NCBI RefSeq assembly: GCF_964204645.1
Contig: NC_134035.1
Location: forward strand, 8,216,451 to 8,280,450
DNA: 64,000 bases
Direction of reading: 5' to 3'
DNA from: Tubulanus polymorphus
Taxonomy: Eukaryota > Animalia > Nemertea
Part shown: in pieces, positions 42,201 through 64,000 of the stretch
Position numbering within the stretch: the stretch's first letter is position 1
Layout: each line of letters starts with the position of its first letter
Made by a program: the position numbers and the translations under genes
The notes under the pieces: model-generated
Databases searched by the model: none
The model's input: only the letters and a program-made list of their open reading frames with translations
Told to the model about the DNA's origin: nothing

Positions 42201-44620
42201 GTCAGAATCAAGATGGCCGACTGGCAGCCATTGTTGTTCGTCAAAATCAGCACTTTTTAAACTTTTTGAACTTTTTGAGGGAAATTTTGAAGACACTTAA
42301 ATCAATTATCTTGATCTTTCATATATGTTTGAATCTCTCAAGGGCCCATCACCATAAGAAAAATTGGGTCGATCGGACTCAAGATGGCCGTCCTATGACC
42401 TTTTTAGTGCCCAAAAATCTCAATTTTGGCCCAAATTCTGAGGTACTGAGGTACTTCCTACTGGTTTGCCATTTCTCATTACAATTTGTGATGGGTGGGT
42501 TGTTTTATACCTGAGCCAGGTATTTTGGATCGGCCAATTGTGACGCAATTGGCGGCCATCTTGGTATCATCAGTACTCATTGGTAGGTGGGAAAAAGTTT
42601 TTCCACATTATATTGATACCAAAGCATATTTTGTTACCACAATTAATTGCAAAGTTGTAGCTCATGACATAATCTATGATTGTGGTGAGTTTTAAGGACG
42701 TTCGTTATTCTATATGGTCACCAGGGGGCGTTGAATAGTAGAATAACTTAGTATTTCCTTATTAGATTGGTACCTAGGCATATTTTGTTACCATGATCAA
42801 TTGCAAAGTTGTAGTTCATGACATGTTCTATGATTATGGTGAGTTTTAAGATCATTGGGTTTTGAATATTGTCACCAGGGGGCGTTGAATAGTAGAATAA
42901 CTTAGTATTTCCATATTAAATTGGTTACGAGGCATATTTTGTTATCACAATCAATTACAAAATCGTAGCTGCTGACATGTTCTACGATTGTGGTGAGGTT
43001 CAAGGTCATTGGTTTTTGTATATGGTCACCAGGGGGCATTAAATATTGAAATTGTTAGATTGTTGAACATTGGAAACCACTTCCCAAGTGGGCATGGTGT
43101 CCCTGGACCCCTAGTTGGTTTTCGTTGGCGACTTTGGAGTTTGTAATTTTTTTCTTATATATATATATATATTTTTCTCGAAGGAGAACGTCTCCTTAAT
43201 GTATATAAATGTGTATTGTACGTAGAGGGTACATGATGAATACACTTATACTATAGGATAGATCAAAAATACCTAAAACTTTGATCAAATTATAAACAGG
43301 ATTGTTCATCTTCCTCAACACTAGAATTGTGACGGTGTTCAAAGCGATGCCGAGTATCGTGACGGGTCCGTAACAGAACATATAAATGTAAACACTAAAT
43401 TTCAGATCCCAGCGTACCGGTTCGATATTCAGAACCTCTTCGCAGCGTCCGGACCACATTACTACGGTCGGTTGTATAGTCGTTGAAATATTTCTCATAT
43501 CCATCTTATTTCACCTGGTTATCTATGAATATATTTTACGAATGGCGATGACGTGATAGGTGAAATATATCGTCAGTTTCAAAATTATAGCCCTTACTTC
43601 TAGTATCATGTGCAGACACGTCATCCTATCCAGAATAGCAGAAACTCGCCTTGTTGGATCGATTGCATGTAATTTTCTAGTCTATATTTCACGCGCTTTA
43701 TTTATACGGGATATTGTGAATTTTCAAATCCGTAATTAGTTAATATTCCGTAAATTTCATGCATATGATATATACATTTCTCAAGCATCATATGTCACCG
43801 TACAAGCCGTATTAGATCACACGAATGGTCGCGAAATTCATCGAAAATGGACTCGTCTACAAAATATAGCACAACCTAATCCCAATTTTCATGTCGCTGT
43901 ATTGACCATATTTTTTTACCAAGAGGACTTCGGAGTCCAGTGGATCGAAGTAGTAACGTTTGATGTATTGGTTACAAATAGGCATGTAGATAGGTAAATT
44001 ATGGAAAAAATGAAAGACTATCAATTGCCAAATTCTTTCAACCAGTATTACAAGAAGAATGGTTAAACAATTAAAAGGTTCTAAATAAAAAGTGCATAAA
44101 TCTTTTTTATCAATATTGTTACAACTCATAATGTTGTTTGTGTTGAAAGACTACCTGTCATTACAAGGTCTATATGCAATGTTATCTTTTCGCACAAAGA
44201 TTGAATATTGCGATATTTTTGAAAAAGTATCAATAAGTTATTCAACTATGATATTTTTTTCACGTCCGATGAGTGTTTGCCGTGGCTGTTCTAAAATACT
44301 GATTTAAACATTTGGTTACTGTTCCTTTAACAATGCAAACATAATTTTCACCAAACAATGATGATGTTGCCTGGTTATACATGTATGAACGCATAACATT
44401 ATAACATTACAACCGCAGCTACAAACCTCATAGGTTTCTTGTTATTTGTAGTTACTATGAGGTTTGAATGTCAATGATGCTGCTAGGCAGAAAACCCGTT
44501 ATCGCAGTTTGAATATTTTTCGTATTTCTTTTATATTTATAGTTAGGCTGGCTGTCGACAATTCTCCATCTTGAGCAAAAATTTAAGAAGGAGCGGACGA
44601 GCGGAATTTTCGGATTCTAA
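33273..44620 (+). CDS. Patatin-like phospholipase with two EF-hands; exons 33273-33302, 34260-34463, 34756-34900, 35773-35903, 36065-36200, 37247-37333, 38047-38150, 38347-38441, 39236-39392, 40085-40186, 40959-41123, 41463-41558, 44543-44620
   Basis: Oxyanion motif LVFEGGGAKG, nucleophile GASIG, RMSIALP, catalytic DGGLLNNYP, EF loops DANNDGCIDRDE and DSNQNNKIEYDE. All exons are AG/GT bounded and phase-consistent. First (MGNLTINGFK) and last exons are the least certain. Confidence 0.88.
33514..33840 (+). mobile_element. CR1/L2-type LINE ORF2 3' relic
   Basis: LQKRAVRIITNSNYLEHTEPLFKRLKIL...LPDCFNDYF matches the typical post-RT tail of CR1/L2-clade LINEs. Confidence 0.7.
39510..39770. repeat. 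(ATT/ATC)n degenerate microsatellite
   Basis: Direct reading. Confidence 0.95.
40817..40872 (-). ncRNA. Penelope-type minimal hammerhead-ribozyme relic (inverted partial pair)
   Basis: Minus strand TGACGA-T-GATCTC-TAGTGC-GAGATC-GAAA-CGTCG; an opposite-facing truncated copy CTGACGATGATCTCTAGTG at 40854-40872. Confidence 0.5.
42004..43116 (+). mobile_element. Helentron-associated non-autonomous element (HINE/DINE-1-like)
   Basis: Sub-terminal inverted repeat GCCCACTTGGGA (42009) / TCCCAAGTGGGC (43082), (CCGT)n microsatellite near 42054-42087, ~154-bp internal tandem units at 42625-43040, 3' stem-loop, inserted in a T-run; empty paralogous site at ~45995-46010. Confidence 0.75.
43183..43504 (-). 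pseudogene. 5'-only truncated duplicate of the GPCR at 46213-47331, nested antisense in the last patatin intron
   Basis: 102-aa ORF nearly identical to the GPCR N-terminus through TM2; premature stop where the intact copy has CTA (Leu); the rest is deleted. Confidence 0.9.
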
Positions 44621-46212: not shown

Positions 46213-47331
46213 TTACTGTACCAATTTCCAATGGAAAAAAGTTCCTACGATCAATTTCTTCGCAGCGAGTCGGAATTTATTATTAGTAAAACAATAGACG
46301 ACAAAGTTTAAACAGGAATCGACGACAGTCAAAGCTATAGCGATTTTACGGTAAACATATAATGATTGTGATACACCCAAACCTGGAATAGGTTGGAAAA
46401 ATATTAGCCGGCTATCCTTGCCATAGGCCAGTTTTTCAATAAAGATCAATGATTCGCAGGTGATGTATACAAAAACTAAAGCAAACGACATTCGTAAAAC
46501 TCTCAGTTCTAAACTACTGGCAGCGGTGCTCCTATTCAAGGTTTTTCTGCTCGATAATTTACTGACTATCAAACTGATTATTAGAATCAAATTGAAAAGG
46601 ATCAGTGAACACATCGGTACAATTATACTGGCTACTGTTCCTGTCCAGGCATTTGTATACTTCTGCCATTTCAACAGTACTCCTTTAAAGTAGGGTAAAC
46701 GGCGTCCGTCACGAATAAGCGTCACCCCGGCATGGCCCTTGACACAAGCAAATGGTTTAAGTGCCCATGCCGGTAGCATGTTCGGAATATGACAAAGAAA
46801 TGCAAATATAGTAATAGAGAATACCAGAAAATTCACAACTTTTCGAGTCCAGAATAATCGTGATTTTAAGGGGAAAAGCGTAATGACAAGTCTTTCTAAA
46901 CTAATCAGCAGGACGCACCAGTTCCGAGTTAGTTGAAGAATAAAATATGGTCCATAAGCCACTTGAATAAATTCCCAACCGTAATGCCAGTCCTCATGGT
47001 GGAATAGAACGTCTCCTAGATGTATATAAATGTGCATTGTACGTAGAGGGTACATGATGAATACACTTGTACTATAAGATATATCAAAAATAGCTAAAAC
47101 TTTAATCAAATTATAAACTTCGGGATTGTTCAGCTTCTTCAACACTAGAATTGTGACGGTGTTCAAAGCGATGCCGAGTATCGTGACGGGTCCGTAACAG
47201 AAAATGTACATGTAAACACTAAATTTCAGATCCCATCGGTTTGGTATGGTATTCAGAATCTTTTCGCATCTCCCAGACCATGTTACTACTGTCGGTTGTA
47301 CAATCGTTGAAATATTATTCATATCCGTCAT
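46213..47331 (-). CDS. Class A GPCR, FMRFamide/sex-peptide/myosuppressin-receptor-like
   Basis: 372-aa intronless ORF with 7 TM helices; TM1 GIALN, TM2 LAIFD, TM3 ISLERL (DRY variant), TM7 DSCLNFVVYCFTNNKFR. Confidence 0.88.
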   Translation of the reverse strand: MTDMNNISTIVQPTVVTWSGRCEKILNTIPNRWDLKFSVYMYIFCYGPVTILGIALNTVTILVLKKLNNPEVYNLIKVLAIFDISYSTSVFIMYPLRTMHIYIHLGDVLFHHEDWHYGWEFIQVAYGPYFILQLTRNWCVLLISLERLVITLFPLKSRLFWTRKVVNFLVFSITIFAFLCHIPNMLPAWALKPFACVKGHAGVTLIRDGRRLPYFKGVLLKWQKYTNAWTGTVASIIVPMCSLILFNLILIISLIVSKLSSRKTLNRSTAASSLELRVLRMSFALVFVYITCESLIFIEKLAYGKDSRLIFFQPIPGLGVSQSLYVYRKIAIALTVVDSCLNFVVYCFTNNKFRLAAKKLIVGTFFHWKLVQ

Positions 47332-47940: not shown

Positions 47941-48310
47941 CTATTGGGAGAGATTTGGCGGCTATTGGGAGAGATTAGTTGCCCTCGTGAAATTATGCAT
48001 TCAAAAGACTTTCGTTCGCCAGAATTGTCGTTTGAGCTCATAAAAAATAAAGAATAAATTCTCGCATGCTCGAATTTATTTTTTATTTTTTACTCACTCA
48101 ACCTCTCGACCTCTGATATGAAAAGACACTTTTCTAATTACTCTAATATTTATATACATGAACATCATATAGATGAATATTATATTAATGAAATCAATTT
48201 TAATAAAAAATTTATATAATAAATGGAGAGTAAACAAGTACATAGTGAGAACAACAAATCATTCTTAGATGGCACCATGATATAGATTTCGAATAAAATA
48301 TGTAAAATAA

Positions 48311-49051
48311 ATGGTAGAATTAAAAGAATATAGAATATATGTAGATTCTAGAAAAATTACAAATCATTTATCTCATAATTTACTGGCACAATTAGATTGA
48401 GAATTTAAAAATTGTGTTGATTTAAAATTATTAAATATAAGTTTATGTCATTCTTTTCATAATATATCGAATAAAAGTCTTGATCATTTAGCTTCTAAAA
48501 TCTATGTTAGAAATTCGACTAAATAGTTTCATCTATATTTGAAACCGGGATTATATAATTTAGAATCATTAGCGCAAGAAATTATTAAAAGAGCTCGTTT
48601 AAAAATTGGCGCATCTAGTCAGTTTGAAATTAAATTTATCAAAAGTGATAGTTCGAATAAAATAAGAATAAAAGTAGGTAATGAACAACATAGATTTTTA
48701 GTAAGAAAACCTAAACTAAACTAAGCTAAACTGTGTGGAATTCTTCCAGATAAAGCTTATTCAAATATTGATACTTATACAAATATAAAACCTTTTACAC
48801 ACTTTTATATTTATTGCAATTCAATTGACCCAACAAAAACTTTCGAAGCAAATAAAGTATATTAAATATTTTACCATTAAAAATATTAAACAATTTGTAC
48901 ACAAATATATTATAATTTAGCTGAATGTGATTTTAAACCTTGTATTTCACAATTTAATAATTTCAAATTAGAAGTAAGAAATCATAATGGATATTCAATT
49001 GATTTAAATAATTTTCCTGTAATTTATAAATTAGTTATAAGATGTAAATAG
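48311..49051 (+). pseudogene. Penton/minor-capsid-like pseudogene
   Basis: MVELKEYRIYVDSRKITNHLSHNLLAQLD*EFKNCVDLKLLNISL is collinear with the 63436 ORF; in-frame stops at 48398 and 48524 plus later indels; C-terminus FKLEVRNHNGYSIDLNNFPVIYKLVIRCK*. Confidence 0.85.
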
Positions 49052-49071
49052 TAATTTTTTGTTATATAAAT

Positions 49072-49326
49072 ATGAATATTACTGTTGGACCGAGTATATG
49101 TTTTGAATTTGATTTTAAACGTGAAAAAGAAAAGAAATTTGGTATTAATGATGTAATAACCCATCTTAAAAATACTACGTTTTTTAATGAAACAACATTT
49201 GATTATGAATCAACAATAAGTAAAGAAGTTAGTAATGTAGAAAAAATTAGTGATTTAATTAGAAATTCTTTAAGATTTTATAAATTAGATGAAGATTTTA
49301 TTATTGATGATATCAAAAAATATTAA
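49072..49326 (+). pseudogene. Viral hypothetical ORF (84 aa, probably truncated)
   Basis: AT-rich ORF directly after the penton stop, preceded by the element promoter-like motif GTAATTTTTTGTTATATAAATATG. Confidence 0.45.
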
Positions 49327-49426
49327 CTGAAATATATAAAAATAAAACTAATAATATCATAAACATTGAATTAATAATAACTAAGATAACTAAATATTTT
49401 GAAGATAGCAATTTTTAAATAAATAA

Positions 49427-49628
49427 ATGAGTGATGATAAGTGTATAATAAATGGATTATATAATGGTGGATTATTATCAGTTGGAAATGTTGGATATAC
49501 AATTAATATATATTATATTATATTATATACAATTAATAATTTCAAAATTAACATTAGCAGTTACGTAATCTAATTTAACAATTGATTATTTGGAAAAACA
49601 AAAATATATTGCTCCTATAAATGCATAA
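49427..49628 (+). pseudogene. Small adintovirus/Polinton membrane-protein ORF, disrupted
   Basis: MSDDKCIINGLYNGGLLSVGNVGYT...IDYLEKQKYIAPINA* resembles a small conserved ORF I recall from group-2 Polintons; broken by an AT-rich duplication near 49500-49540. Confidence 0.5.
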
Positions 49629-49642
49629 TCTGTGTTAAATAA

Positions 49643-50066
49643 ATGGCGTCTGCAAATATTACTATTATGGGATCGGCAATTGTTAACGCTTTAGCATTTA
49701 CAGGTGGTGGTTATTTATTTAAACATATTGAAAAAAATGGTTCATTATCAGAACAAAAAAAGACATAACTTAGCATTAGAAAAATATGTTAAAGCTAATA
49801 AAGAATATAGAGAAAAGAGACAAAATTGTATGGATTATGTTAATGAAGAATTATATAATCAAAATATTTCACATCGAGATTCTAAGTCAGTCGATGATGC
49901 TATGAGTTTATATAACGCAGTAACAAATAAAGAAAAATTACATATATATAAACCTACAATATCAGATTATTATACACCAAGTAATGAACAGAAGAAATAT
50001 GAAATAATATGGATTTTAGGTGGAACAGTTCTTGTTATATTTGTGGCATACAGATTTACAAATTAA
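49643..50066 (+). pseudogene. Conserved adintovirus/Polinton membrane/coiled-coil protein, +1 frameshift in the A7 run at 49755-49761
   Basis: MASANITIMGSAIVNALAFTGGGYLF...EQKRHNLALEK...DYVNEEL...SDYYTPSNEQKKYEIIWILGG has the NALAFTG / ERKRH / SDFYxPS pattern of this family (recalled, not searched). Confidence 0.7.
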
Positions 50067-50195
50067 TTATATATTATATTTTTAGGTTGAGTGAGTAAAA
50101 ATGAAAATAAATTCGAGTGTGTGAGAATTTATTTTTATTTTTTATGAGCTCGACCTTTCGACCTTTGGTCTGAAACAAGACTTATCTTATTACTT

Positions 50196-51085
50196 AGGTC
50201 AAACAGCTGGGGCGACTGACTTCTTAGTAATAGTGCTGTAGTTTTTGGCGAACTGTAGGTTTGCCTATGCAAACCGTCTGGTGAAGCAGTCTTCATTGAA
50301 AATGAATAGAGCACCGGTGTGTCAACAAGGCACAAACATTGGCTGTTGAACCAATAGTGGTGATTTTTTGCGTCATTGTATGGCCTAATGAGTTCTCGAG
50401 CCCACAAAATTTCATAGTGATCGAGTTATTTTTAGGGGACTTATTCTTGAAAAACACGTAAAAACCCTGCTTTTTAGCACTAAGTGATGGCACGTTTTTA
50501 CATATGACAATTTGCATATTTGGAATTGAAATATATAAAAATTCTATCCTTCCTGGAAGTGTTGCCATTTTTGTGCGACTGATCTCGATGAACTTTTCGA
50601 CCTACAGGCCCTCACTTTATAAACCCCCTAAATTTTCTCGTTTCTATTTATCTGAGTTGACCTTGCTACCTGAGCTACAATGAATGCGATTGGCTGTTTG
50701 TGGGATATACGGGAAATTCTGGGAATTTCGGCGCTTCTGATGTAATTGGGAGAGCCCCATGTGGAACTCGCTAAAAAGCAAAATGGCGAGCATTTCATTC
50801 GACTAGGTATCGTATGCGGGCTTATAATTTGTTCGGTTTTACGAATATAGCCGAGTAGGCTATTCAATTCAGTATCCAAACTAGCAAATATGACGATACT
50901 GCTGGAGTTTTGGCTTAGATTTGTCTTGTCAACGCCTTAGACCTGCTAACCCGTACGGTTTAACCGCGGCCGTCGGTCCGCTTTTTTGTGAACCGTGTAA
51001 CTGTTCTACTCTATTCAATTTGAGTACGTTCTTCCTAACAAAGAATGATTAAACGAAACAGGCCAAGCGCCCCAGCTGCTTGACG
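50196..51085. mobile_element. Non-autonomous DNA transposon abutting the relic's end
   Basis: Inverted ends GTCAAACAGCTGGGGCG ... CGCCCCAGCTGCTTGAC. Confidence 0.55.
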
Positions 51086-51299
51086 TTTATTTAAAATTCC
51101 GCCAGGCTCTGTTTTAGTGCCGACTAATGACATGTACCTATCCCTAAAAAATTCGAAGACCATTCTTTTTGCAGATCTTTAGGTATTCTTTAACAATGCA
51201 GACATAATTTTCCTAACAATGGTGATGTCACCTGGTTTGTATCTAAATGGTGTGCCAAATTATCAATTTAGTAGTAGATGGCAATGCCAATATGTGGTT

Positions 51300-51625
51300 G
51301 AAGTTATTAGTCCTTGTATGCTGATGACACTATTTTACTGGCTGACAGTGCCGATAACCTGCAGCATTTGCTTAACTCAGCCTCATAGACGGTAACCTAA
51401 TTGAATATTGGTCAAAGATTTCCGGTACCTTGGGGTTATTTTCAATTATACTGGCTCGTTCGTGAAATGTAGAAAAAGTGCACGTGAGCATGCTAAGAAA
51501 AGCCTTTTCTTTGTATTAAAAAAAAGTAAAGGAACAATCGTTAGACTTAGACATTGCATTCCAGTTGTTCGATGCGATGGTTGTACCAATACTAACATTT
51601 GGATCAGAAATTTGGGGGTACGAGG
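51300..51625 (+). mobile_element. Non-LTR retrotransposon reverse-transcriptase relic
   Basis: YADDTILLADSADNLQHLLN, VKDFRYLGVIF and FDAMVVPILTFGSEIWG in shifting frames. Confidence 0.8.
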
Positions 51626-52009
51626 GAAGGGGGAGAGATTCGGTAAATATACCAACGCGACACGACATATTTTCTATAAACCGGCACCGGAGACATTGGT
51701 GTCTGATGCGACGCAACTTAAAAGTGCGGGAATCAATATACGGCGGAATTCTGGGATACAACTGTGGTGTCCGACCAACTAATTGACTTGTGCATAACCG
51801 AACATCCTCACATCGAGCTTCTGAGAGACTTATTTACCAGGTAACGGAAACTGGATATAACAGCGAAACCAATGATAATAACGATGATAACTAACTAGCT
51901 AACTTTAATTGTGTGTGATCATTTCGTTAATAAAACCTGATTTATTAATACGTTGTTGATTTCCATATCTTGTTTGTTTGTGTTTTGTGGTCACCCGTCA
52001 ACCCAGTCA

Positions 52010-52302
52010 ACCCACGATCCTTGTGCATAATTTCTCGACTACATTGCGACATGTCGTCCGTCGACCGTCAACCAGCGGATTATATAGGTCTATGCACTAT
52101 AATCGTCTCTCATATTGGTCACCACGATCCTTGTACTTAAATTATTGGCGACAACATTGCAACGTGTCATCCGTCGACCGTCAACCAGCGGAATATATAG
52201 GTCTATGCACTATATCGTCTCTCATATTGGTCACCACGATCCTTGTACTTAAATTATCGGCGACAACATTGCAACGTGTCATCCGTCGACCGTCAACCAG
52301 CG
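52010..52302. repeat. ~110-bp tandem repeat, about 2.6 units
   Basis: CCACGATCCTTGT...CCGTCGACCGTCAACCAGCGGA units start near 52012, 52122 and 52234. Confidence 0.85.
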
Positions 52303-52980
52303 GAGAGATACAATGAGCCAACCAACAAACAGTGAACTAAGTTTACCCATTAACTGTCACTACTAGTCGTCGGTCAACCTGTACATAAACTGGCCCTTTG
52401 CCGCGCATTAATACCAAATTGATGTATTCATGCGCCAATGTATTAATGCGCTGATACATTACCCGCACAACTTATTCGCTCTGTGCTTTATACGATTTGG
52501 GCCCAATTTCCTTAAGTTCGCATATCAAGGCAGGGGCGTGTCCAGCCGGTCAATTTGACTTTATTCCTAAAAATTACTGCTCAATTATCTGCCGGCGATG
52601 AAGCTGATTAAAGGGAGTTTGATATCCTACCCCAAGAAAAATTTGAAAAATCACTCCTTTTCCTTGTATCTAAAGGTACGGAATCGCCCTGTGGACATAT
52701 CTATCAAAACAAATTTTTCGAGGTTAACTCCGAGTTCGTAACTCGGAATAAACTAGTTATCTCAGTTAAACGCGACTATGACCCTTAAAGTTCTTATTGT
52801 ATCACCGATACTTTTACTAACATAGTTAGTTTCTCTTTAAGAATCGCCCTCGGATATTTATCTGTCATATTCAAAAACATTTTCTAAAAGTGTATGATAA
52901 AATGCGTTTGCAATGAATAAACGCAAAGTTTCGATAGAAATTCAATGAATATCATGTAAAACTATGATATCATGTAAAAC

Positions 52981-53379
52981 TATGGCGGCTGATAAGGGCC
53001 AAATACAATAATTTTCACACGACCTCGATTATAGAAAAACACAAAACGAAACTTATACAGCAAAAACGAATTTTTGTTTTTGCTCTATGGATTTTCGTTT
53101 TGCATTTTTCTATAACCGAGGTCATATGAAAATAATTCAATAGAGCAAAAACGAAAGTTCGTTTTCGCTAGGGCGCAAGACGAATTTTATGGCGCAAAAA
53201 CGAAAAATCATAGAGAAAAAACGAAAAATCATAGAGCGAAAACGAATATTTTCGAAAAGTTCGTTTTTGCGCGGTAGCAAAACGAAGTTTTCGTTTTTGC
53301 TCTATAGGTTTCGTTTTGCGTTTTTCTATAATCGAGGTCGTGCAAAAATTAATGCATTTGGCCCTTATCAGCCACTATA
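52981..53379. mobile_element. MITE with ~75-bp TIRs
   Basis: TATGGCGGCTGATAAGGGCCAAAT... / ...ATTTGGCCCTTATCAGCCACTATA, flanked by TAAAAC on both sides; empty paralogous site ATGTAAAACAGA at ~45048-45059. Confidence 0.85.
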
Positions 53380-55221
53380 TAAAACAGATACATGAAAAAG
53401 CGATGTTTATCTGCTTATTTTACTTAAGTCTACATTGTACATTACTCAAACTTCTAAATCCCGGGTAGGCATACGCGGGGCTATATCCAAGATTTGAAAA
53501 ACCGATTTCCTGTGACGTTTGAGAGATGAGGAACACCTTTTTAAAGGCTGATCCAAAATGGCTGCAAAAGAAAATATGAAAGCTTTCGATGTTTCTTGGA
53601 AATAGCTGTCATTGGTTAAAGAAATGTTTGTTTTCGTACTTTAAGTGTATGATATATAAGTATATCACCTTGGCAACTGCATTATCACGCGGTTTTGGGT
53701 CGTTTCTATTTCTATCGAACCGTTTTACCGGTTACACAGTTTAGCGCATCATAATATCGTCAGTCGCTTGTGCGCTGCAAATGCAACTGGATCAACTGTT
53801 TGATGAATCGATTCGGTCTCGCGCAGTATACTCTCCGCTCGCTCGCTCGCTCGCTCTCTCCGTCGATATCAGTCGGTGTTTTATTACTACACGGCAGTCA
53901 GTACGCGTAAAACAAACGACATATCACCACATCTGCGAGTGGATAAAACACACGTACTGTGAGAGTGAAATCACGTTTACACGTACACGCGTAGAGAACA
54001 GAAGAGACATACCGTTAGTCAGGTAAGTATTTAGTCGCAGTGTGCTTTTGATAAAATCGATATATCACAAGATTTGTGGTAACGACTTTTTGAATATACG
54101 TTACACAAATAAAGCGTAGGTGAAATAAATCGCCAATTGAATAGTAATTCTGATTTATCATTTGAAATTATCATAGAAATCAAAATTTCCGTGATAACAT
54201 GGATACGGAGAGGAATATCGCCAGTCAGGTATCGAACTGTTGCGATGATAATAAGTATACGAATTTGCAGAGTTGTCCATATCTGCGATAATCACATAAA
54301 GACCCGAATGTACGGGCTTGAATTTAAGAATAGAAATGAGTATTAGAGACTAGAGAGTGCATCTCATACCACGTAGAATTCACTTGAGTCTTCAGAGAAG
54401 AAAACTCGAACTTGACATGAAATACATGGTAATCCCGATAACAGACCAATCGTTCAATTTCGATTTCGATTTGATCAGAACCATTTGTATTGGGACTTGA
54501 ATTTCGTATGGGTTAGAAGAAAATTGCCGGTCGATGGACCTAAAATAAAAACACAGTCACCCTTATATCGATGGTACGGAAAATTTCTTATTCGACGTAC
54601 GTTTGAGGGCAAAACAATTTACTTTCGTTTTTGGACTAATTATGGTAGATTTTCCTCCTCAGAAACCCTCGAAGTTGTATGAAATACGTGCAAGAAATAA
54701 ATCTAACTCGTTGATTATTCATGTATTTGCCGGTGAATATTCCAAATTCCGATATTAAGAATTCAGCTGGTTTTCGATTGGTCTCTATACCGTTTCCGGT
54801 ATTCTCTTCTGGCGCGTTCGTTACGACCAGAATACGCTCTACCCTATCCGGAATAGCGTAATGTGTAAACCCGATAGAAAGCCGGTCAGAGTCCGTAATC
54901 CGGAATTACTGTTCCTAAACCGGAATACGTTCAATCGAAGAAAGCTGCCTCATAGTCTGAATGACGGCGGAGTGGCGTTTCTAAGAAAACCGCATCGAAG
55001 TCGCACAATCCGTATACAGCGTAACAACGATCGCGCAGCAACCACCACGATCTTTAACCGAACGAATAGTCTCTCCTCGCGGATCTTAATTTAAATCTTT
55101 TTCGAATCGTCTGAATAATTGGAACTGATCGTTGCCGTTTTTTTGGTCAATTGCAGTAATCGAAGAGATGTACGCGTTGATGGTATGAGCGGTGGAGATT
55201 AATGCGGTCCGACTCCCGACG

Positions 55222-55330
55222 ATGGACACGATAACCATATTTGTGATTGTCATAGCAACTGGTATAATGACTGTGGCAATATGCCTCGTACTGTTTTGTA
55301 ACTGTGTGAAACGATTCAACAAAAATAGAG
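55222..55330 (+). CDS. Probable first coding exon of a host single-pass membrane protein (5' UTR exon ending ~54022)
   Basis: Acceptor TTGCAG at 55151-55156; MDTITIFVIVIATGIMTVAICLVLFCNCVKRFNKNR is a TM helix followed by Cys and basic residues; donor GAG|GTATAT at 55330; strong upstream donor CAG|GTAAGT at 54022. Confidence 0.45.
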
Positions 55331-55467
55331 GTATATCTGTTTATTTACATATCGCTTCCGCTAGACAATATGGCTACATTCATAAAATCCCCACCATGAC
55401 GTCACTTAAGCCCAATGCACACGGTGCATGGAAACACGGAAAATGGTGATACAAATACATTGTTTCT

Positions 55468-55631
55468 GATCGTTTCCCTGTTCCCGTTTAGGCAAAACGC
55501 AGGGAAACACGGGAATAGGGGACACAAACATGTTTCCAATCGTTTCCCTGTTCCCGTTTAGGCAAAACGCACGTACGACGCAGGGAAACACGGGAATAGG
55601 GGACAAAAACATGTTTCCAATCGTTTCCCTG
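55468..55631. repeat. ~70-80-bp tandem repeat, 2+ units
   Basis: TCGTTTCCCTGTTCCCGTTTAGGCAAAACGCA...GGGAAACACGGGAATAGGGGACA repeated. Confidence 0.8.
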
Positions 55632-56940
55632 TCGGTTCGTGAAACAACGTTTCCGACATGAAAAATGTTTGATTCCGTCTTTCTGTGCAGGTTCCGTATT
55701 TCTCTGCGTGTCGTTTGGCTTGCAATTTATAATTGCTAATCGTCTTCTAGTGTCCCCAGATTCGAACCGATTAAAGCTGACGAATCACGACGATAAGCAA
55801 TTAATTCGATCGGGGATTTCTAAGGCAGCCATTCCGGGAAGGTATACATACAGTCCTATCGTCCGAGCAGCGTTCACCGTCAAATTGATATTGTTCGAGC
55901 AAAAAGCCCATAGAAAGCGCGGACATTTTTTTAAACCAAAACGTCTCGATAAACTGGCCGTAAATTTAGTAGGAGCATTCTAGAACGTGTGAATATTATG
56001 AATGTGTCATGTGATCTCCCTTACATGTGGAGAAAGGGTCCTTCATCTCTGAAGATATCCCGTGCCGATGGAGGCCACTGGAAACAGAATTGTAGTAGCA
56101 AGCAAAAAAGTGACAATAACAAATTGATTGCAGCAAATGCCTGAAATACGTTTTTTTGGGTTTTCCGGGGACCACGTGATTGTTTTCAACCGATGAAATC
56201 GTCGCTGGACCAGTTCAATCAGATACCAATCAGCTTGCGAAAAATCATCAAGATACAAGCAGTAAACACTGAGTAAAATCGTGCGCCGTTACCGCTTTTC
56301 ATGATATGGATATCATTACTGATGGTAACGTGTAATTGATGACGTATCAAAACCGATCGAAAGCACGTTGATTTGAACTCGTGTTTCGCTCCACGACGCT
56401 ATAGGCGTTATACACGATATACGATATTCACCAAAAGCTGACATTTATTTGAAACTACACGTAGAAAGCACACTCGCGTATACATCGATCGCTACGACTT
56501 CGCTAGCTCGGTAGCGAAATATGTAGCAACGCCGGATTTATTCTGATCTTTTGGGTTCAAGTCTAGTGCTGTACTAACTGGGGCTTTGTGCCTGAATGAA
56601 TGGTACCGTTATATTGCGAGTCTATAATTAGAATTCCTGCTGACTGATTGGCTGAAATTTAAGTCTGCTTCCGTTTGGCCCTCTATAAATATTTCCACAC
56701 CGGTTTATCGCCGTTCCATTTCCATTAGTTTATACAATGATTGACTACCACTTTCTCCACGGCGACACTATTTGGTACATAGTTTCGTATCAATATATAT
56801 ATCGTAATCCGTTCTGAATTATTGGCCTGTTTTATTATAATGAAACAAGTCATTTTATTATAATGAAACAAGTCATTAATACAATTTGAGTAATTAGAAA
56901 AGTAGGGTTTCAGATCAGAGGACGAGAGGACGAGACACCA

Positions 56941-57007
56941 CTCATCACCACAAGTAATTTTTTTTTTCCTACTCATCACCACAAGTAATTTTTTTTCCTT
57001 ATAAATG
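56941..57007 (+). promoter_or_regulatory. Putative viral promoter of PolB: duplicated CTCATCACCACAAGTAATTTTTTT followed by TATAAATG
   Basis: Direct ~31-bp duplication; the same CTCATCAC...TTTTCCTT(A)ATAAATG arrangement precedes the VLTF3-like ORF on the minus strand (63365-63410). Confidence 0.55.
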
Positions 57008-60000
57008 GGGGAGAATGAACACCAGCCAGAAAACAATAATGTTAATAAAAATCAATATTATTGCACATATTGTAAAAAATATGTTGATACATCTAATAAA
57101 ACACGACATGAAAAAACTGCAAATCATATAAAAAATGTAATAGATTTTGAAACTCCAGAAAATTCTAATGAAAGAAAAGAACGATTAGAAAATATGAATG
57201 TGAATGAAATAAAATGTGAAGTTTGTAACGAATTTATAGTAAAAAGGAATTATAATAGACATCTCGAATCACAAAAACATTATAAAAATTTAAATAAAAA
57301 TGTTTTAGGATTAGAATATTTTGATAATAAACCTCAACAAGTAAAAGAATCAACTTCAAAAACAAAATCTATTTCAAATAAACCTTACATGGAAAATGTT
57401 AGAAATTATATTGATTCACTAGAAATAAAAGATACAATTGAAATCTTAGAAACATTACATAGTAAAATTGGTCCTGCAGCTATTATATTTAGATTTTTTA
57501 AAGGTACAACAATAGAAGATTATAGTAAATTTAATGAAATAATAGAAAAAATACTAGATTTGATAACAGATGTTGAATATCCAAAAATAAGTATCTCTGG
57601 GAAAGTAAGTTTTATAAAGTCAGAAGAAAAAATGGATTATAATATTCAAACACACTCTGAAGAAATAATTTCAAAAACACAAATAAAAGAGAAGTTAGAA
57701 AAAATATTAAATGAATTTAAACGTCATATTGAAGAAAGATATTTTGAGGGTTCTGGCTTAACATTGAATGAAATTATATATTTAGATTTAAATGTTTATA
57801 ATACAAAAAGGAATAAAACATCAAAAAGTAATAAAATGTTTAAAAATGATTCAAACTTTATAACAGAAAAAGATATGAAAGCATCAAGTTATATCAAATT
57901 ACCATTTATAACAAAAGCAGTAATAAATATTCAAAATGAAGATAATAAATGTTTTCTATGGTCAATTATTAGTTGCTTACATCCAACACAGGAAAATGTT
58001 TGTAGAATAACAGATTATCGGAAATATGAAACATTATATAAAATTGATCAATATCCAGTAACTATAAAAATGATTCCTAAAATAGAAAAAGTTAATAATT
58101 TAAAAATAAATGTATTTGAATTAATGCAATTACCAAAGACAAAAGGTGAAAATATTAAAGATTATACATTGGAAGCTTTATATTTAACAGAATATTATGA
58201 TGATGAAAATGCTGTAGATTTGTTATATTACAAAAAAGATGAAAATGAACATTATATGTGGTTAAAACAAATTGATTTATTCTTTAGAACAGAAAGTGAT
58301 CATCATAATAAAATTTATCTATGTAGAAAATGTTTATCTAAATTTATGACTGAGAATACATTATTAAAACATAAAGAATTATGTGATAATAAAGATTTTT
58401 GTAAATTAATAATGCCAACAGAAAAAGATTATAAATTGAAATTTACTAATTATAAATTTAAAAATATTGTTCCATTTGTAATTTATGGGGATTTTGAATC
58501 GTTGAATAAAGAATTAACTAATCAAGATAGAAAAGAAATATATAACAAAAAGCAATTATTAAAATCAATGGATAAAGGAAATGAATTAAATGAAGACACA
58601 ATACAAGACCCACCAATTATAAATACAATTAAAAAAGTTCATCAAAGAGCTGCTGCTTATGGAATTTACATCAAATCAAATTATCCCGAATTATATGAAA
58701 GTCAATATATTTCTTTTAGAGGTGAAAATGTAGTTAATGATTTTTGTGATAAAATGATTGAATTAGAAAGTGATTTTACAAAATTATTAAACAAAAATAA
58801 AAGAATAGTTATGACAAAAGAAGATGAAATTGATTTTAATTATGCAACTCATTGTTGTTACTGTGAAAAACGTTTTTATTCATTTGATAAAAAAGTTAGA
58901 GATCATGATCATTTAAATTCAAAATATCGTGGAGCTGCTCATGAAGATTGTAATTTACAAGCTAAAAAAGTAAATTTCGTACCAATATTATTTCATAATT
59001 TATCAGGATATGATACCCATCTATTTATAAAACAATTATCGGGAAAATTGGGTGCAATTAATCAAGAAATAGAAGAATATAATGCTATGAATGAAGCAAA
59101 TGTAAGAAAATATGATTTTAAACTATTAGCTAAAACATCTGAAAATTATATTTCATTTCAATTTGGTTGCATTAGATTTTTAGATTCTTATAGATTTCTA
59201 GCAAGTTCATTAGATAATTTATCAAAATCATTAGTTGATAATGATTTTATTATAACTCGATATTATTATCCAAATGAACAAGATTTTAAATTATTGAGAT
59301 ATAAAGGCGCAATTCCTTATTCATTTTATAAAACACATGATGATTTTAATGTAACAGAATTATTAAAAGATCAATTTTATGATCAATTAAAAGAGGAGTA
59401 TGTGAAAGACGAAGTTTTTAATAGAACATTAAATATTTGGAACCATTTTAAGATGAAAAATCATGGTGAATTAGTTGATTTATATTTAAAATCAGATGTT
59501 ATGATATTGGCAGATATATTTGAAAAATTTAGAGAAGTTAATTTGAATCATTTTAATGTTGATCCTTGTTATTGTTATTCTAGTCCTGGTTTAACCTGGC
59601 AATGTGGTTTAAAATATACAAATGTAGAATTAGATTTATTAAAAGAACCAGATATGGTTTTATTATTTGAAAAATCAATTAGAGGTGGAATTAGTGGTGT
59701 TATGGGAGATAGGTATTTTAAAGCAAATGATGAATATAAATTATTATATATTGACGCCAATAATTTATATGGTTGGGCAATGATGCAACCTCAACCATAC
59801 AAAAATTTTATATTAACAGAAGTTGAAAATGATGATAAAACTGATTGGGAAAGCGCAATTACGAGTTTAAAAGATGAAGCACCAATTGGTTATTTCTTTG
59901 TAGTTGATTTGGAATATCCCGAAAATATTAAATTTAAAACAAGAAACTTGCCATATTGCCCCGAACATTTAGCCGTAGATGATAGTTATTTAAGTGAATA

Positions 60001-62069
60001 CCAGAAGAAAGTAAAACCGAAAGATCATGTTTTTACGGAAAAATTAATACTTACTCAAAATAATAAATACAATTATATTGTTCATTATAGAATGTTAAAA
60101 TTTTATCTAAAACAAGGAATGAAATTAAAGAAAGTACATAGATATATTGAATTTAATCAATCGAAGTGGTTAGAAAAATATATAGATTTCAATACTCAAC
60201 AGAGAACCATATCAAAAACAGATTTTGAAAAAGATTTCTTCAAATTGATGAACAATAGTTTTTATGGTAAAACATGTGAAAATATTAGAAATAGAAATGA
60301 TATTGAATTAGTAAATAATTCTGAAAGATTAAGACATTTACAATCAAGTCCTAGACATTTAGGAAATAAAAGATTTGAAGATTATTTAACAGCAGTTAAA
60401 TTAAAAAGAACATCAATGAAATTTAATAAACCTATATTTATTGGTTCGACTGTTTTAGAAGTATCAAAATTATTAATGTATGATTTTTATTATAATGTTT
60501 TACAACCACTTTTTGGAGAAAAACATATAGAAATATTATATTTTGATTCTGTAACAGCTGACACCCCAATATTATTAAAATATAATAACCAAATATTAAT
60601 TAGAAGAATTTCAGAAATAATTTCAAAACAAAATGAATGTTATATTTCATATGGTGAAAAAGAATTAATACAAATAAATGGATTAATGGATGTTTGGACA
60701 AGAAATGGATGGAAAAAATTAAAGAATATTATTAGACATAAAACAAATAAGAAAATCTATAGAGTTAGAACTAAATTAGGGTTTGTAGATGTTACAGAAG
60801 ACCATAGTTTAATTAAACAAAATGGTGATGAAATAAAACCAACTGATATAAAAATTGGAGATGAATTATTACACAACAGATTTTACCCAAGAATGAATCA
60901 TATGTCATTTGATGAAATAATTGATAATATTTATAATATAGAACCCGAAACATTGGAAGAAAAAGAATATTTTATCAAAGGATTTTTCATGGGTGATGGT
61001 TCAGCAGGTATGTATAAATATGTTAGTGGAACTAAATATTGTTGGTATTTATGCAATCAAGACTTAAAATTATTAGAAAGAATAAAGAAATTCTGTGAAG
61101 AAGTTTATCCAAATAAAACATTTAGAATCATGGATGTTATGAAATCAACAGCAGTTTATAGAATACTTGTAAATAATCCTAAAGATTTTGCTATAGAATA
61201 TAATGATGAATTCTATATTCATGCAATAGTGAAAAGTAATACTTCAACAAAAGAAAAGATAGTTCCAGATTATGTATTAAATGCAAAAAATAATTTAAGA
61301 AAATGGTTCTTCATTGGATTCTATGCTGCAGATGGTTCAAAAAGTTTCAAAAACCGCAAAAACAATATCTTTAGCTCAAAAAGGAAAAGTTGCTATATCA
61401 GGATTGAATATATTATGCAGTTCATTAGGATTTAATATGAATATTGGATTGATTAAATCTAAACCAAATTGCTTTAATTTAAGCCATGTAGAAAATGAGT
61501 TAACAGAAGAAGTTAAAGATTTATTTGAAATATATAACCCAACAGATTATGTTTATGATTTATCAACTGAAGATGGTACATTTAACAGTGGATTTCCATT
61601 AATAGCGGCCAATACGGATGCCTACATACTAAAAATCAAGACAAATAACATAACAAAAGACTTAAAAACATTAAAACATCATTTTGATTTTAGCAATTAT
61701 CCTAAAGATCATGAACTATTTAGCAATGATAATAAAAAGATTCCTGGTAAATTTAAAGATGAATTAGGAGGTGATGAAATGATTGAATTTGTTGGGATAA
61801 GAAGTAAAATGTATTCATATAAAACTAAAGATCATGAATCTAAAAAGTTAAAAGGAATAACAAAACATGTGGTTGATAAACATATAGAATTTCAAGATTA
61901 TATAAAGTGTTTATATAAATCAATTGTAATGAAACACAAAATGAATTGTTTAAGATCAGAAAATCATGAAATGTACATAAATGAAATTGAAAAAACTAGT
62001 TTAAATCCATTTGATGATAAAAGGCATATTTTAGATGATGGTATAAAAACATTACCTTATGGCCATTAA
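57005..62069 (+). CDS. polB: Protein-primed family B DNA polymerase (pPolB) precursor containing an intein; split by a +1 frameshift at ~61339-61362; mature extein product would be ~1332 aa
   Basis: ExoI VIYGDFES, ExoII FHNLSGYD, ExoIII YLKSDVMIL, PolA YIDANNLYG, PolB KLMNNSFYGK, PolC YFD|TDA, C-terminal GKFKDE...RSKMYS...KLKGI...PFDDKR...TLPYGH; N-terminal C2H2 fingers, NEDNKCFLWSI and DHDHLNSKYRGAAHEDCN typical of group-2 Polinton PolBs. Confidence 0.95.
60548..61613 (+). mobile_element. Intein with LAGLIDADG homing endonuclease (355 aa if one base is removed)
   Basis: Block A SVTADTPILL, block B VDVTEDHSLI (TxxH), block C FIKGFFMGDGS, block E FFIGFYAADGS, block F YVYDLSTEDGTF, block G LIAAN followed by extein Thr; removal restores YFDTDA. 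Confidence 0.95.
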
Positions 62070-63367
62070 AACATAAAATCAATATCATCAAACTCGAAAT
62101 CACTATTGGCTTCTTCATTTTCATTTAATTGTTCAGGTTCTTCTTCAATTCCATTTTTCTCATTTAAATAAATTTCTATCTTGTTCCACATTTCATCTCG
62201 CTCTCTTTGTTTCTTTTTGTTTGTTAATTCATCAAATGGAATTATAATATCTAGGTTTAAATAATTTACAATCTTATTTAAAAAGAATTCATAATTTATT
62301 GAATCTGTTATTCTATTTTCCAAATGATACATTAATATTTGTTTAAATATTTTTTTTATATTTTCCATATCTTCTTCTGTTAATTTAGGTTTTTCATAAT
62401 AATCGTTAAATAATAAATATAAATACATTTTCTTTTGTTTTGTGTTAAATGTTGACGGAATAATTGTTTTTATAATATCTTTTTTAGTTATTTCACCATT
62501 TTTATTTTCTATTATTTTCATTTTTTCAAGCCATTGCATATATTCTGGTGTATGATCTTCTATAGAAAATATTTTAAAAATTTCATCTAGATAATTTAAT
62601 TTTGGTTCTATGAGAAAATCTCTAGTTTTTTCTTCACCCCATAAATTCTTTTGCCATCCACATTCAACACAAAATAACACAGCACCTTCTTGTCTTAAGG
62701 TCGCATAACTACATTGTGGGCATTTTCGTTTATAATTTATTGGTAATAGATCTTCATTAAGCTCTTGGTATTTTCTTACGTTTTCTTTATGTTTTATTGT
62801 TCTATTATGTAGATTTGAATTACTTGTTGTAATAATCAATTTACAATATTTACAATAATATGTTTTTCTTGTTAATTCATTATATTGTTTTTCTAACTTT
62901 TCAACTGTTTCTTTATTATCTGGTAACGTTTTCTCATATTTTATTTTTTCTAATAAATTATTTTTTCTTTCATTGAATTCAGTTTCAAATTTATTAGAAA
63001 TTTTATCTATATGTGCTTTACGAAATTGATGATTCTCCCAATCTTCTATATTTTCAGGGTTATATTTTATTCGACAAGGCTCACAGAAATGATCTTTTAT
63101 ATTATCCTTATCATAGAATAAGAAAGGTCTTTTCCAAATAACTTCAGGTTCAACTTCGGCAGATTTACTATCAACATTAGCCGTTGCGCCATTAATTCTA
63201 CACTTCTCTGAATGTTTTTTAACATAATTTCTTGAGAATAATTTATTACATTTTGGGCAGTTTATTTTAGGGGGTTTATAATTTTCATCATGTTTTTTCA
63301 TATGTCGAGCCATATTACTTTTTCTTAGAAGTTCACCACAAATTTCGCATGCTATCTTCTCATCCAT
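62066..63367 (-). CDS. Multi-zinc-finger protein fused to a VLTF3 (vaccinia A2L)-like late transcription factor domain
   Basis: N-terminal C2H2-type fingers; zinc ribbon CPQC-x13-CVECG (62657-62722); C-terminal SINYEFFLNKIVNYL...RERDEMWNKI resembles the VLTF3 S-Y-x-F/Y-x-L-x-K...D-x-x-W-x-K-I pattern; stop overlaps the PolB stop (TTAA). Confidence 0.7.
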   Translation of the reverse strand: MDEKIACEICGELLRKSNMARHMKKHDENYKPPKINCPKCNKLFSRNYVKKHSEKCRINGATANVDSKSAEVEPEVIWKRPFLFYDKDNIKDHFCEPCRIKYNPENIEDWENHQFRKAHIDKISNKFETEFNERKNNLLEKIKYEKTLPDNKETVEKLEKQYNELTRKTYYCKYCKLIITTSNSNLHNRTIKHKENVRKYQELNEDLLPINYKRKCPQCSYATLRQEGAVLFCVECGWQKNLWGEEKTRDFLIEPKLNYLDEIFKIFSIEDHTPEYMQWLEKMKIIENKNGEITKKDIIKTIIPSTFNTKQKKMYLYLLFNDYYEKPKLTEEDMENIKKIFKQILMYHLENRITDSINYEFFLNKIVNYLNLDIIIPFDELTNKKKQRERDEMWNKIEIYLNEKNGIEEEPEQLNENEEANSDFEFDDIDFMF

Positions 63368-63435
63368 TTATTAAGGAAAAATTTTATTAAAATTAATTTT
63401 TAGTGATGAGCGGTAATTTTTTTATGTTATAAATA

Positions 63436-64000
63436 ATGGTAGAATTAAAAGAATACAGAATATTTGTAGATTCTAGAAGGCTTACAAATTATAAATCTCA
63501 TAATTTATTAATACAATTAGATAGAGAATTTAAGAATTGTGTTGATTTAAAATTAGTAAATATTAGTTTATGTAATTCTTTTTACAATGTAACGGATAAA
63601 AGTCTTGAACATTTAATTTTTTCAATCTTTTATAAAAAAAGGAATAAATGGTTTTTTATATATTTAAAACCAGGATTATATAATTTAAATACATTAGCAC
63701 AAGAAATTAATAGAAAAGCTCGAGCTAAATTAGGAAGTGATTCTGGATTTAATATTAGAATTTTAAAAAGTGCTAGTTCTAATAAAATAAAGATTAGGTT
63801 AGACGAACAATTTAAATTTACAGTAAGAAAACCTTTAGGTAAACTGTTAGGAATTGCCCCTGATATTGTTACAGCATACGCAGAAGGTAAATCAAACTTA
63901 ATGCCTTTTACACATTTTTATATTTATTGTAATTTAATCGATCCTACAAAAACATTCGAAGCAACTAAAGATATAACTTGTAATTCTGGTTTACTAAACA
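63436..64000 (+). CDS. Penton/minor capsid protein-like ORF, open to the window end (not in the ORF track)
   Basis: MVELKEYRIFVDSRRLTNYKSHNLLIQLDREFKNCVDLKLVNISLCNSFYNV...KPGLYNL...LGKLLGI...HFYIYCNLID, 188 codons with no stop; motif order fits single-jelly-roll pentons of Polintons/NCLDVs. Confidence 0.75.
   Translation, partial: MVELKEYRIFVDSRRLTNYKSHNLLIQLDREFKNCVDLKLVNISLCNSFYNVTDKSLEHLIFSIFYKKRNKWFFIYLKPGLYNLNTLAQEINRKARAKLGSDSGFNIRILKSASSNKIKIRLDEQFKFTVRKPLGKLLGIAPDIVTAYAEGKSNLMPFTHFYIYCNLIDPTKTFEATKDITCNSGLLN

Follow-up and report, generated by a model that had tools for sequence, protein, structure and literature searches.

TAAATG at the gene starts of a nemertean Polinton ends a compact upstream signal resembling poxvirus post-replicative promoters

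Late promoters of vaccinia virus carry TAAAT(G) over the start codon and a T ten bases upstream (PMC11980589), and in its intermediate promoters TAAA is paired with an AT-rich core at a distance of 12 bp (PMC11980589, PMC12917281, PMC5294985; here and below, papers are cited for their sections on promoters and gene content). Slippage on the AAA yields a 5' poly(A), as it also does in yeast virus-like elements with a TAAAN initiator (PMC6211774). Here we describe a signal of this kind at the gene starts of a Polinton/Maverick-type element in the nemertean Tubulanus polymorphus. The window analyzed is a stretch of 64,000 nucleotides (assembly GCF_964204645.1, contig NC_134035.1, positions 8,216,451 to 8,280,450), to which all positions refer. 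Like vaccinia intermediate and late promoters, the signal has TAAAT(G) at the start codon and a core rich in AT or T one to two turns further upstream, and it occurs together with a VLTF3/A2-like gene. It differs in that it sits on a Polinton, that its T peak lies at -9 to -7 instead of -10 and that its promoter role is putative. Furthermore, the part of the element seen carries no RNA polymerase, VLTF1/2 or capping enzyme, and its genes show no clear split into two temporal classes.

Small integrating double-stranded DNA elements that lack an RNA polymerase, but whose gene starts bear the motif of a large virus, have been described in protists. Mavirus and EMALE04 match the promoters of their helper Cafeteria roenbergensis virus (CroV; PMC10945749), Gezel-14T matches those of Phaeocystis globosa virus (PgV; bioRxiv 2022.07.28.501842), and a Tetraselmis preprint reports likewise. 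These elements have protist hosts, Imitervirales helpers and other motifs, whereas the Polinton described here resides in an animal, bears a motif of poxvirus type and has no known helper. Polinton-like viruses (PLVs) also occur in occlusion bodies of entomopoxviruses, where one lineage is a Maverick/Polinton branch, and a beetle genome contains one integrated copy (Barth et al. 2024, PMC11296320). For those PLVs the physical link to a poxvirus is shown, whereas the window element is known here from sequence alone; a term search of the text and supplement of PMC11296320 returned no promoter, motif or VLTF analysis. One motif-positive relative of the window element (L110, see below) has mu-core-like and phospholipase genes in common with them.

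The yeast element pGKL1 relies on the polymerase of pGKL2, and both use a protein-primed PolB. They resemble the present case in their initiator, TAAAN, which on these linear elements gives a 5' poly(A) by slippage (PMC6211774). Unlike the Polinton, they have their own RNA polymerase, their upstream conserved sequence is of the early-promoter type, and they neither integrate nor code for a capsid. Adintoviruses, which are animal Polintons/Mavericks (PMC8502044), share with the window element a protein-primed PolB, many chromosomal copies and apparently terminal repeats, and the relatives collected here carry integrase, A32 ATPase and double jelly-roll capsid genes. The sections of PMC8502044 covered contain 0 matches for promoter or TAAAT and mention VLTF3 solely in connection with viruses from non-animal datasets; published figures already show VLTF3 in protist PLVs. 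A literature search, whose coverage stopped short of subscription journals and preprint supplements, found no paper on TAAATG promoters in Polintons.

Exact TAAATG is present at six of the eight element starts in the window (48223, 48311, 49427, 49643, 57005 and, on the minus strand, 63367). The remaining two have TAAAT with the ATG displaced by 3 nt (63436) or 2 nt (49072), so that TAAAT overlaps or lies within 3 nt of the start codon at 8/8 starts, as in poxvirus intermediate and late promoters. A first-pass annotation of this DNA had placed seven starts in TAAATG. Five are exact (those listed above except 48223), while 63436 and 49072 have only TAAAT with a shifted ATG; all strings it quoted lie where it located them. 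As a null we used the ATGs of element DNA other than starts and in-frame Met codons, of which 25/333 (7.5%) are preceded by TAA, giving a binomial P of 4e-6 for six of eight exact starts and of 4e-5 for the five of seven above. TAAAT within 3 nt is found at 30 of these 333 ATGs (~9%) against all eight starts (P 4e-9). TAAAT is commoner before these starts than before other element ATGs. The internal ATGs suggested as a control are unusable when in frame, because a preceding TAA would end the reading frame; 51 in-frame Met codons were set aside. As the motif had a part in the selection of short relic ORFs (open reading frames), these P values are inflated; of the four starts that a long ORF or a paralogue defines (57005, 63367, 63436 and 48311), three are exact. 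In host DNA, TAA directly precedes 47/2008 ATGs, and TAAATG occurs at 0/5 non-element ORFs of at least 120 aa (several perhaps not genes), in agreement with the earlier remark that called host starts do not show the motif.

To follow the motif beyond the window, PolB searches were run, which yielded 119 loci, mostly partial. Starts were defined without regard to the motif as the first ATG of ORFs of at least 80 aa with 45 nt upstream, so that the counts are free of the selection bias noted for the window. We removed 10 near-duplicate loci, shadow ORFs and any start falling within the PolB match. In the closest loci (L024-L027 and L029, 59-80% PolB identity) TAA stands before 10/11 starts, and in a second clade (L039, L041, L043 and L047) before 9/10; together these give 19/21 TAAATG (18/20 unique starts) and neither TAG nor TGA. 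The 31 other loci below 33% GC have 16/186 (Fisher 2e-15 against the two clades, the groups having been chosen after the counts were known). Distant positives are L002 (7/7 at 38% GC), L074 (2/2) and L110 (5/13 plus TAAAATG forms). Of 57 loci with at least four starts, 52 show the motif at 15% or less, and equally AT-rich loci are without it (L021 1/11, L048 0/4, L050 0/4). The signal is lineage-specific and independent of AT content.

An origin by chance, from AT-rich DNA and the picking of the first ATG after a stop, draws on the element's GC content of 22-24% and on the influence that the motif had on the choice of some relic starts. We rejected it on the start-versus-null counts, the relatives and the upstream profile described below: equally AT-rich loci lack the motif, L002 has it throughout at a higher GC content, no TAG or TGA counterpart exists and the profile transfers between genomes. 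Chance is hardly credible as an explanation.

In a PolB tree (FastTree, 89 sequences with a PolB match of at least 400 aa, loci L001-L103 only, deep support weak) the positives form one supported clade that includes the window, a second clade and scattered tips. The positive loci encode integrase and A32 ATPase, and L110 in addition double jelly-roll capsid, mu-core-like and phospholipase genes, which identifies them as Polintons. L110:1-12905 is a near-complete Polinton binned in a bacterial metagenome-assembled genome, with TAAATG or TAAAATG at most starts; a search for relatives of its capsid found none. Many starts in the motif-negative loci L006, L011, L017 and L064 read TAAAA(A)TG, which is either a variant form of the initiator or a Kozak context rich in A. 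At three starts (L002:1452-4251, L032:2935-3432) ATAAG lies immediately 5' of TAAATG, which we take to resemble the baculovirus late initiator.

The motif could also be a vestige, with promoters inherited from a helper-dependent or cytoplasmic ancestor and present copies spread by leaky host transcription. The patchy distribution over the PolB tree fits this idea, as do the broken relic and the broken PolB copy in the window. However, the motif is retained across 34-80% PolB identity, in accessory and core genes and in swapped upstream alleles. This persistence across divergent elements, gene types and upstream alleles indicates continued selection in active lineages, and we regard a mere vestige as improbable.

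The hexamer is one end of a larger pattern. When 17 starts from the window and close relatives are anchored on TAAAT, T occupies -9, -8 and -7 in 15, 12 and 14 of them, A occupies -15 to -12 in 10-13, C or G is found at -6 in 10, T at -5 in 13 and A at -1 in 16. This is a non-random AT-rich core at a constant upstream distance, as in poxvirus intermediate and late promoters. T at -10 is present in 8/17 starts compared with 15/17 at -9, the vaccinia position being taken from the published description (PMC11980589) and not from a side-by-side poxvirus set. We then built a matrix of the upstream 20 nt from 18 starts of relatives, excluding the window and the hexamer. Among 167 TAAAT sites it ranks the eight window starts 1, 2, 3, 5, 9, 19, 28 and 39 (P 2e-7). 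Two points temper this result: the false sites are mostly in coding DNA, and L024 is closely related to the window element. Since a profile trained on relatives only singles out the window starts, TAAAT and the upstream core constitute a compact two-part promoter-like signal. Both genes of a divergent pair have the motif in L002, where they are separated by 34 bp, and in the window, where 68 bp lie between them. An extra TAAATG at 49618-49623, 22 nt upstream of the 49640 site, ranks 4/167 and opens few codons; it is a possible tandem promoter.

The first-pass annotation had called the motif a poxvirus late initiator. The match to the published post-replicative initiator (PMC11980589, PMC12917281, PMC5294985) holds, but with the T peak at -9 to -7 'late' and 'intermediate' are not separable, and the late class is not established. 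Orthologous genes alternate between T-tract and A-tract upstream types, and an intermediate/late cascade by gene type was dismissed, as the 63436 gene and PolB change upstream types among copies. By their counts of AATAAA, TTTTTNT and GT[AG]AG relative to synonymous shuffles, 11 motif-positive and 20 motif-negative genes could not be told apart, so that these counts say nothing for or against a nuclear or a cytoplasmic site of expression. A 29-nt degenerate promoter pattern had no match in IMG/VR.

A role in translation was considered as well, with TAA-ATG serving termination-reinitiation on polycistronic RNA or providing a trans-splice or leaderless context. Several genes begin 3-17 bp after their neighbor and the T tracts before the ATG resemble splice-acceptor tracts. 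Nonetheless, the TAA closes an upstream in-frame ORF of more than 30 codons in only 2/33 cases, and the stop triplet before the ATG is always TAA, while true stops are TAA 22, TAG 13 and TGA 3 (n=38). The motif is also found at first genes and at divergent genes. Stop-start coupling was ruled out on the rarity of sizeable ORFs ending in the TAA and the missing TAG/TGA counterpart, and a splice acceptor because AG is absent from the last 12 nt before all eight window starts. Motif-negative loci favor A at -3 (350/560 starts), so the T at -3 that TAAATG imposes opposes the usual translation context (Kozak). A translation signal therefore appears very improbable to us.

Two further sequences had been put forward. 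Element starts were said to lie often after a GTAATTTTTT tract, yet GTAATTTTTT followed by TAAAT is found at only three of the eight starts (49051, 56985 and 63413; expectation 0.04 from whole-window shuffles, which ignore the lower GC content of the element). A near-identical pattern is present at 0/119 PolB loci, and the GTAA part of GTAATTTTTT is local. The claim that CTCATCAC lies upstream of PolB (twice) and of the VLTF3-like gene is correct as to position (56941 and 56972 on the plus strand, 63410 on the minus strand), but the PolB pair is a single 31-bp duplication, which 218 reads of the raw DNA run X6 lack (joint 56939-56971). In six X6 reads the upstream region of the VLTF3-like gene is almost identical to that of PolB, and CTCATCAC looks like a trace of promoter duplication. 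It was discarded as a general factor site because it varies among copies and none was seen by eye upstream of the relatives' starts. Neither GTAATTTTTT nor CTCATCAC is a general part of the promoter.

The read data also address the 68 bp between the divergent starts of the VLTF3-like and 63436 genes. Among ~200 X6 reads, 14/68 intergenic positions vary at 5% or more, none of them in either initiator or the T tract, and no change in the hexamer of the VLTF3-like gene reaches 5%. A further 327 X6 reads reach the 63436 gene through an upstream region of the type seen in the relic, ending in exact TAAATG. Thus, the gene has two unlike upstream alleles, with TAAAT kept in both. Its product belongs to a family of ~250 aa found in further Polinton-like loci. 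It may be penton-like. The penton assignment made earlier was not confirmed: the protein has no named homologue and matches only unnamed viral clusters, DUF5901 is below cutoff, one homologue search was empty, no solved structure in the PDB matches and the predicted model has a predicted local distance difference test score (pLDDT) of 35, too low for use.

The VLTF3 label, in contrast, was borne out. When the 63367 protein is scanned by its C-terminal 200 aa, PF04947 (Pox_VLTF3) scores 26.9 bits, the cutoff being 25 (a Pfam scan of the whole protein did not show this domain), the VLTF3 clusters of the protein atlas match it (0.94), and both a zinc ribbon and the helical VLTF3 domain are found. 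A predicted model (pLDDT 82, five-sequence alignment) matches VLTF3 proteins, in the order of an unnamed entry, cowpox virus (E 6e-6, TM 0.62), two entomopoxviruses and then Megaviridae and pandoraviruses (4e-5). Poxvirus VLTF3 (A2) thus provides three of the four best named matches, with the predicted fold leaning toward poxviruses without deciding. Most homologue searches with the whole protein were empty, one gave four matches, and no PDB fold was found at E 0.001. L024 has an orthologue in the same convergent position with a TAAATG start; among the 119 mostly partial loci the VLTF3 profile found L024 only.

On balance, we think it probable that TAAATG is the conserved end of a two-part poxvirus-type post-replicative promoter, one that would serve the RNA polymerase of a poxvirus-like helper virus infecting the same cell. 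This reading is favored because the signal and a matching factor are present, a polymerase is missing from the part seen, virophages and PLVs are known to mimic promoters and PLVs of entomopoxviruses exist. By analogy with poxvirus biology, the helper polymerase would start on the AAA, slip and add a 5' poly(A) leader. With such a start the T at -3 would be absent from the mRNA and no encoded 5' untranslated region would be needed. Integrated copies may stay silent until a helper infects the cell, as virophage biology suggests, and the element's own VLTF3-like protein might tune or compete with the late factor of the helper.

Several observations weigh against this interpretation. The constancy of the eight initiator positions among X6 reads is weak when taken alone (chance ~0.16), and minor contigs alter 63431 and 63433. 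The T peak lies 1-3 nt nearer to the start than the vaccinia late T, and T at -10 is found in 5/8 window starts, close to background. The two clades were named post hoc, the wider PolB clade having 22/45 against 29/525 in all other loci, and the sister group L048, L060, L064 and L072 has mostly TAAAA(A)TG or no motif. The fold E-values do not split poxviruses from Megaviridae and pandoraviruses. Among 39 ORF queries scanned with Pfam, no RNA polymerase subunit was found. Initiators of the TAAA type are also known from yeast virus-like elements (PMC6211774), and ranavirus promoters contain TAAAT, so the motif extends beyond poxviruses. Finally, mriyaviruses, which have no RNA polymerase and are thought to be nuclear, keep VLTF2 and VLTF3 (PMC11253617).

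The mriyaviruses make an autonomous nuclear program the main rival, in which the VLTF3-like protein of the element, acting in cis or from sister copies, guides host RNA polymerase II and no helper is involved. The element does reside in a nuclear genome in many copies, and no helper virus is known for this host. However, loci such as L002, L110 and L039 are motif-positive, although among the 119 mostly partial loci the VLTF3 profile matches L024 only. A polymerase II start within TAAAT would leave a leader of 2-3 nt, which is poor for scanning without slippage. TATAAAT as a TATA box was rejected, since it would place the transcription start downstream of the ATG. We consider the autonomous program unlikely, if less so than the other alternatives above, and retain the helper-polymerase reading.

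Table 1 Features of the window. Rank refers to the relatives-trained profile among 167 TAAAT sites.
Feature	Position	Strand	Basis or remark
Rhodopsin-family receptor gene	47331-46213		ORF and domain match
Decayed fragment of the element family, terminal-repeat-like sequence at each end	48030..50194	.	22% GC; repeats D1, D4, D7, I2, I4
TAAATG of 20-codon gene remnant, A-tract upstream	48220..48225	+	rank 2/167
TAAATG of broken 63436-gene paralogue	48308..48313	+	rank 3/167
T tract, TAAAT, ATG 2 nt on, before 84-aa ORF without homologue	49051..49074	+	rank 5/167
TAAATG before 48-codon remnant	49424..49429	+	weak tblastn match to L060, E 0.006
TAAATG of ~140-aa gene, split into frames 49643-49768 and 49737-50066	49640..49645	+	
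Left part of multi-copy Polinton/Maverick-type element, ~24% GC	56889..64000	.	GC step; X6 read ends; X6 depth; cut by window edge
31-bp tandem duplication, both PolB CTCATCAC copies inside	56941..57001	+	varies among element copies
PolB promoter-like signal: T tract, spacer, TAAATG (57002-57007)	56985..57007	+	rank 9/167
Protein-primed PolB with intein-like insert	57005..62069	+	PF03175 E 9e-20; homologues up to 69%
VLTF3-like late transcription factor gene, N-terminal zinc fingers, intact 433-aa ORF	62066..63367	-	
VLTF3-like gene promoter-like signal: A tract, T tract, TAAATG (63370-63365)	63365..63390	-	rank 1/167
CTCATCAC between two divergent starts	63403..63410	-	3/8 positions vary in 8-11% of X6 reads
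63436 gene promoter-like signal: T tract, TAAAT (63430-63434), ATG 3 nt on	63413..63438	+	
Conserved Polinton-type gene, cut by window end	63436..64000	+	phmmer E 7e-6 to 250-aa ORF of L010

The signal-bearing genes lie in two AT-rich islands of one element family, the decayed fragment and the larger element (Table 1), within animal DNA of 37-40% GC. X6 depth is 225-690 in element bins against 7-30 in the neighboring host bins 53804-56638, from which we estimate some tens of element copies at 85% likeness or more. Run X8, presumably RNA, contributed a single contig that falls outside the element and so bears neither way on its expression. Position 56889 is an element terminus, as 681 X6 reads with unlike flanks end there; the terminal sequence has an inverted-form match at 48102-48143, and the opposite element end falls outside the window. 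Within the window the larger element contributes PolB, the VLTF3-like gene and the 63436 gene. The protein-primed PolB is a Polinton/Maverick hallmark, and the PF03175 match, above cutoff, upholds the label given earlier. Integrase, packaging ATPase and major capsid protein would lie outside the windowed part, which is cut at 64000, and are present in L026, L039, L002 and L110.

The windowed PolB copy is split over two frames (57005-61435 and 61323-62069). Its intein-like insert (~60550-61620) holds a LAGLIDADG-like part and matches the intein family PF14890 at E 1e-7, below the curated cutoff. As 44 X6 reads join across the insert, copies with and without it coexist in the host. Inteins in animal nuclear DNA are unusual; intein domains are also seen in the PolB homologues P0010, P0018 and P0032.

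In the relic, a ~70-bp imperfect palindrome is present in both subterminal regions (48032-48101 and 50084-50149), just inside the terminal-repeat-like sequence, and owing to this shared arrangement the left edge resembles a second right end. The remnant at 48223 only weakly resembles a gene of L025 that encodes 121 aa (E 0.18). The paralogue at 48311 is 82% identical in DNA to 63428-63722, and its type of upstream region is found in more copies than the other type. Both pieces of the 49643 gene match one gene in L047, L060 and L064, whose starts read TAAATG in L047 and TAAAATG in the other two. The host repeats separating both element pieces comprise a 112-bp tandem repeat, an inverted repeat resembling a miniature inverted-repeat transposable element and an 81-bp repeat (52012-52326, 52981-53379 and 55421-55632). 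Two adjoining rhodopsin-family receptor genes lie at 43196-43504 and 46213-47331, one intronless and complete, the other truncated.

The finding is best read as a variant of virophage-style promoter mimicry, in an animal Polinton. Whether animal Polintons are autonomous viruses, and how their genes are expressed, is a long-standing question to which the signal gives a testable answer of 40 bp. As a sequence marker, the motif would sort Polintons into likely helper-dependent and likely autonomous lineages. A wider proposal can be made only tentatively, as we lean slightly against it: a widespread lineage of animal Polintons may consist of endogenous virophages of poxvirus-like viruses, each gene being set on a poxvirus-type initiator and the late factor of some copies hijacking or jamming the helper. 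The motif would then be a sign of as yet unknown poxvirus-like viruses infecting invertebrates, and perhaps of an antiviral defense that animals inherit. If true, the virophage concept would move from protists into animal chromosomes, and poxvirus-like viruses would be predicted where none are known.

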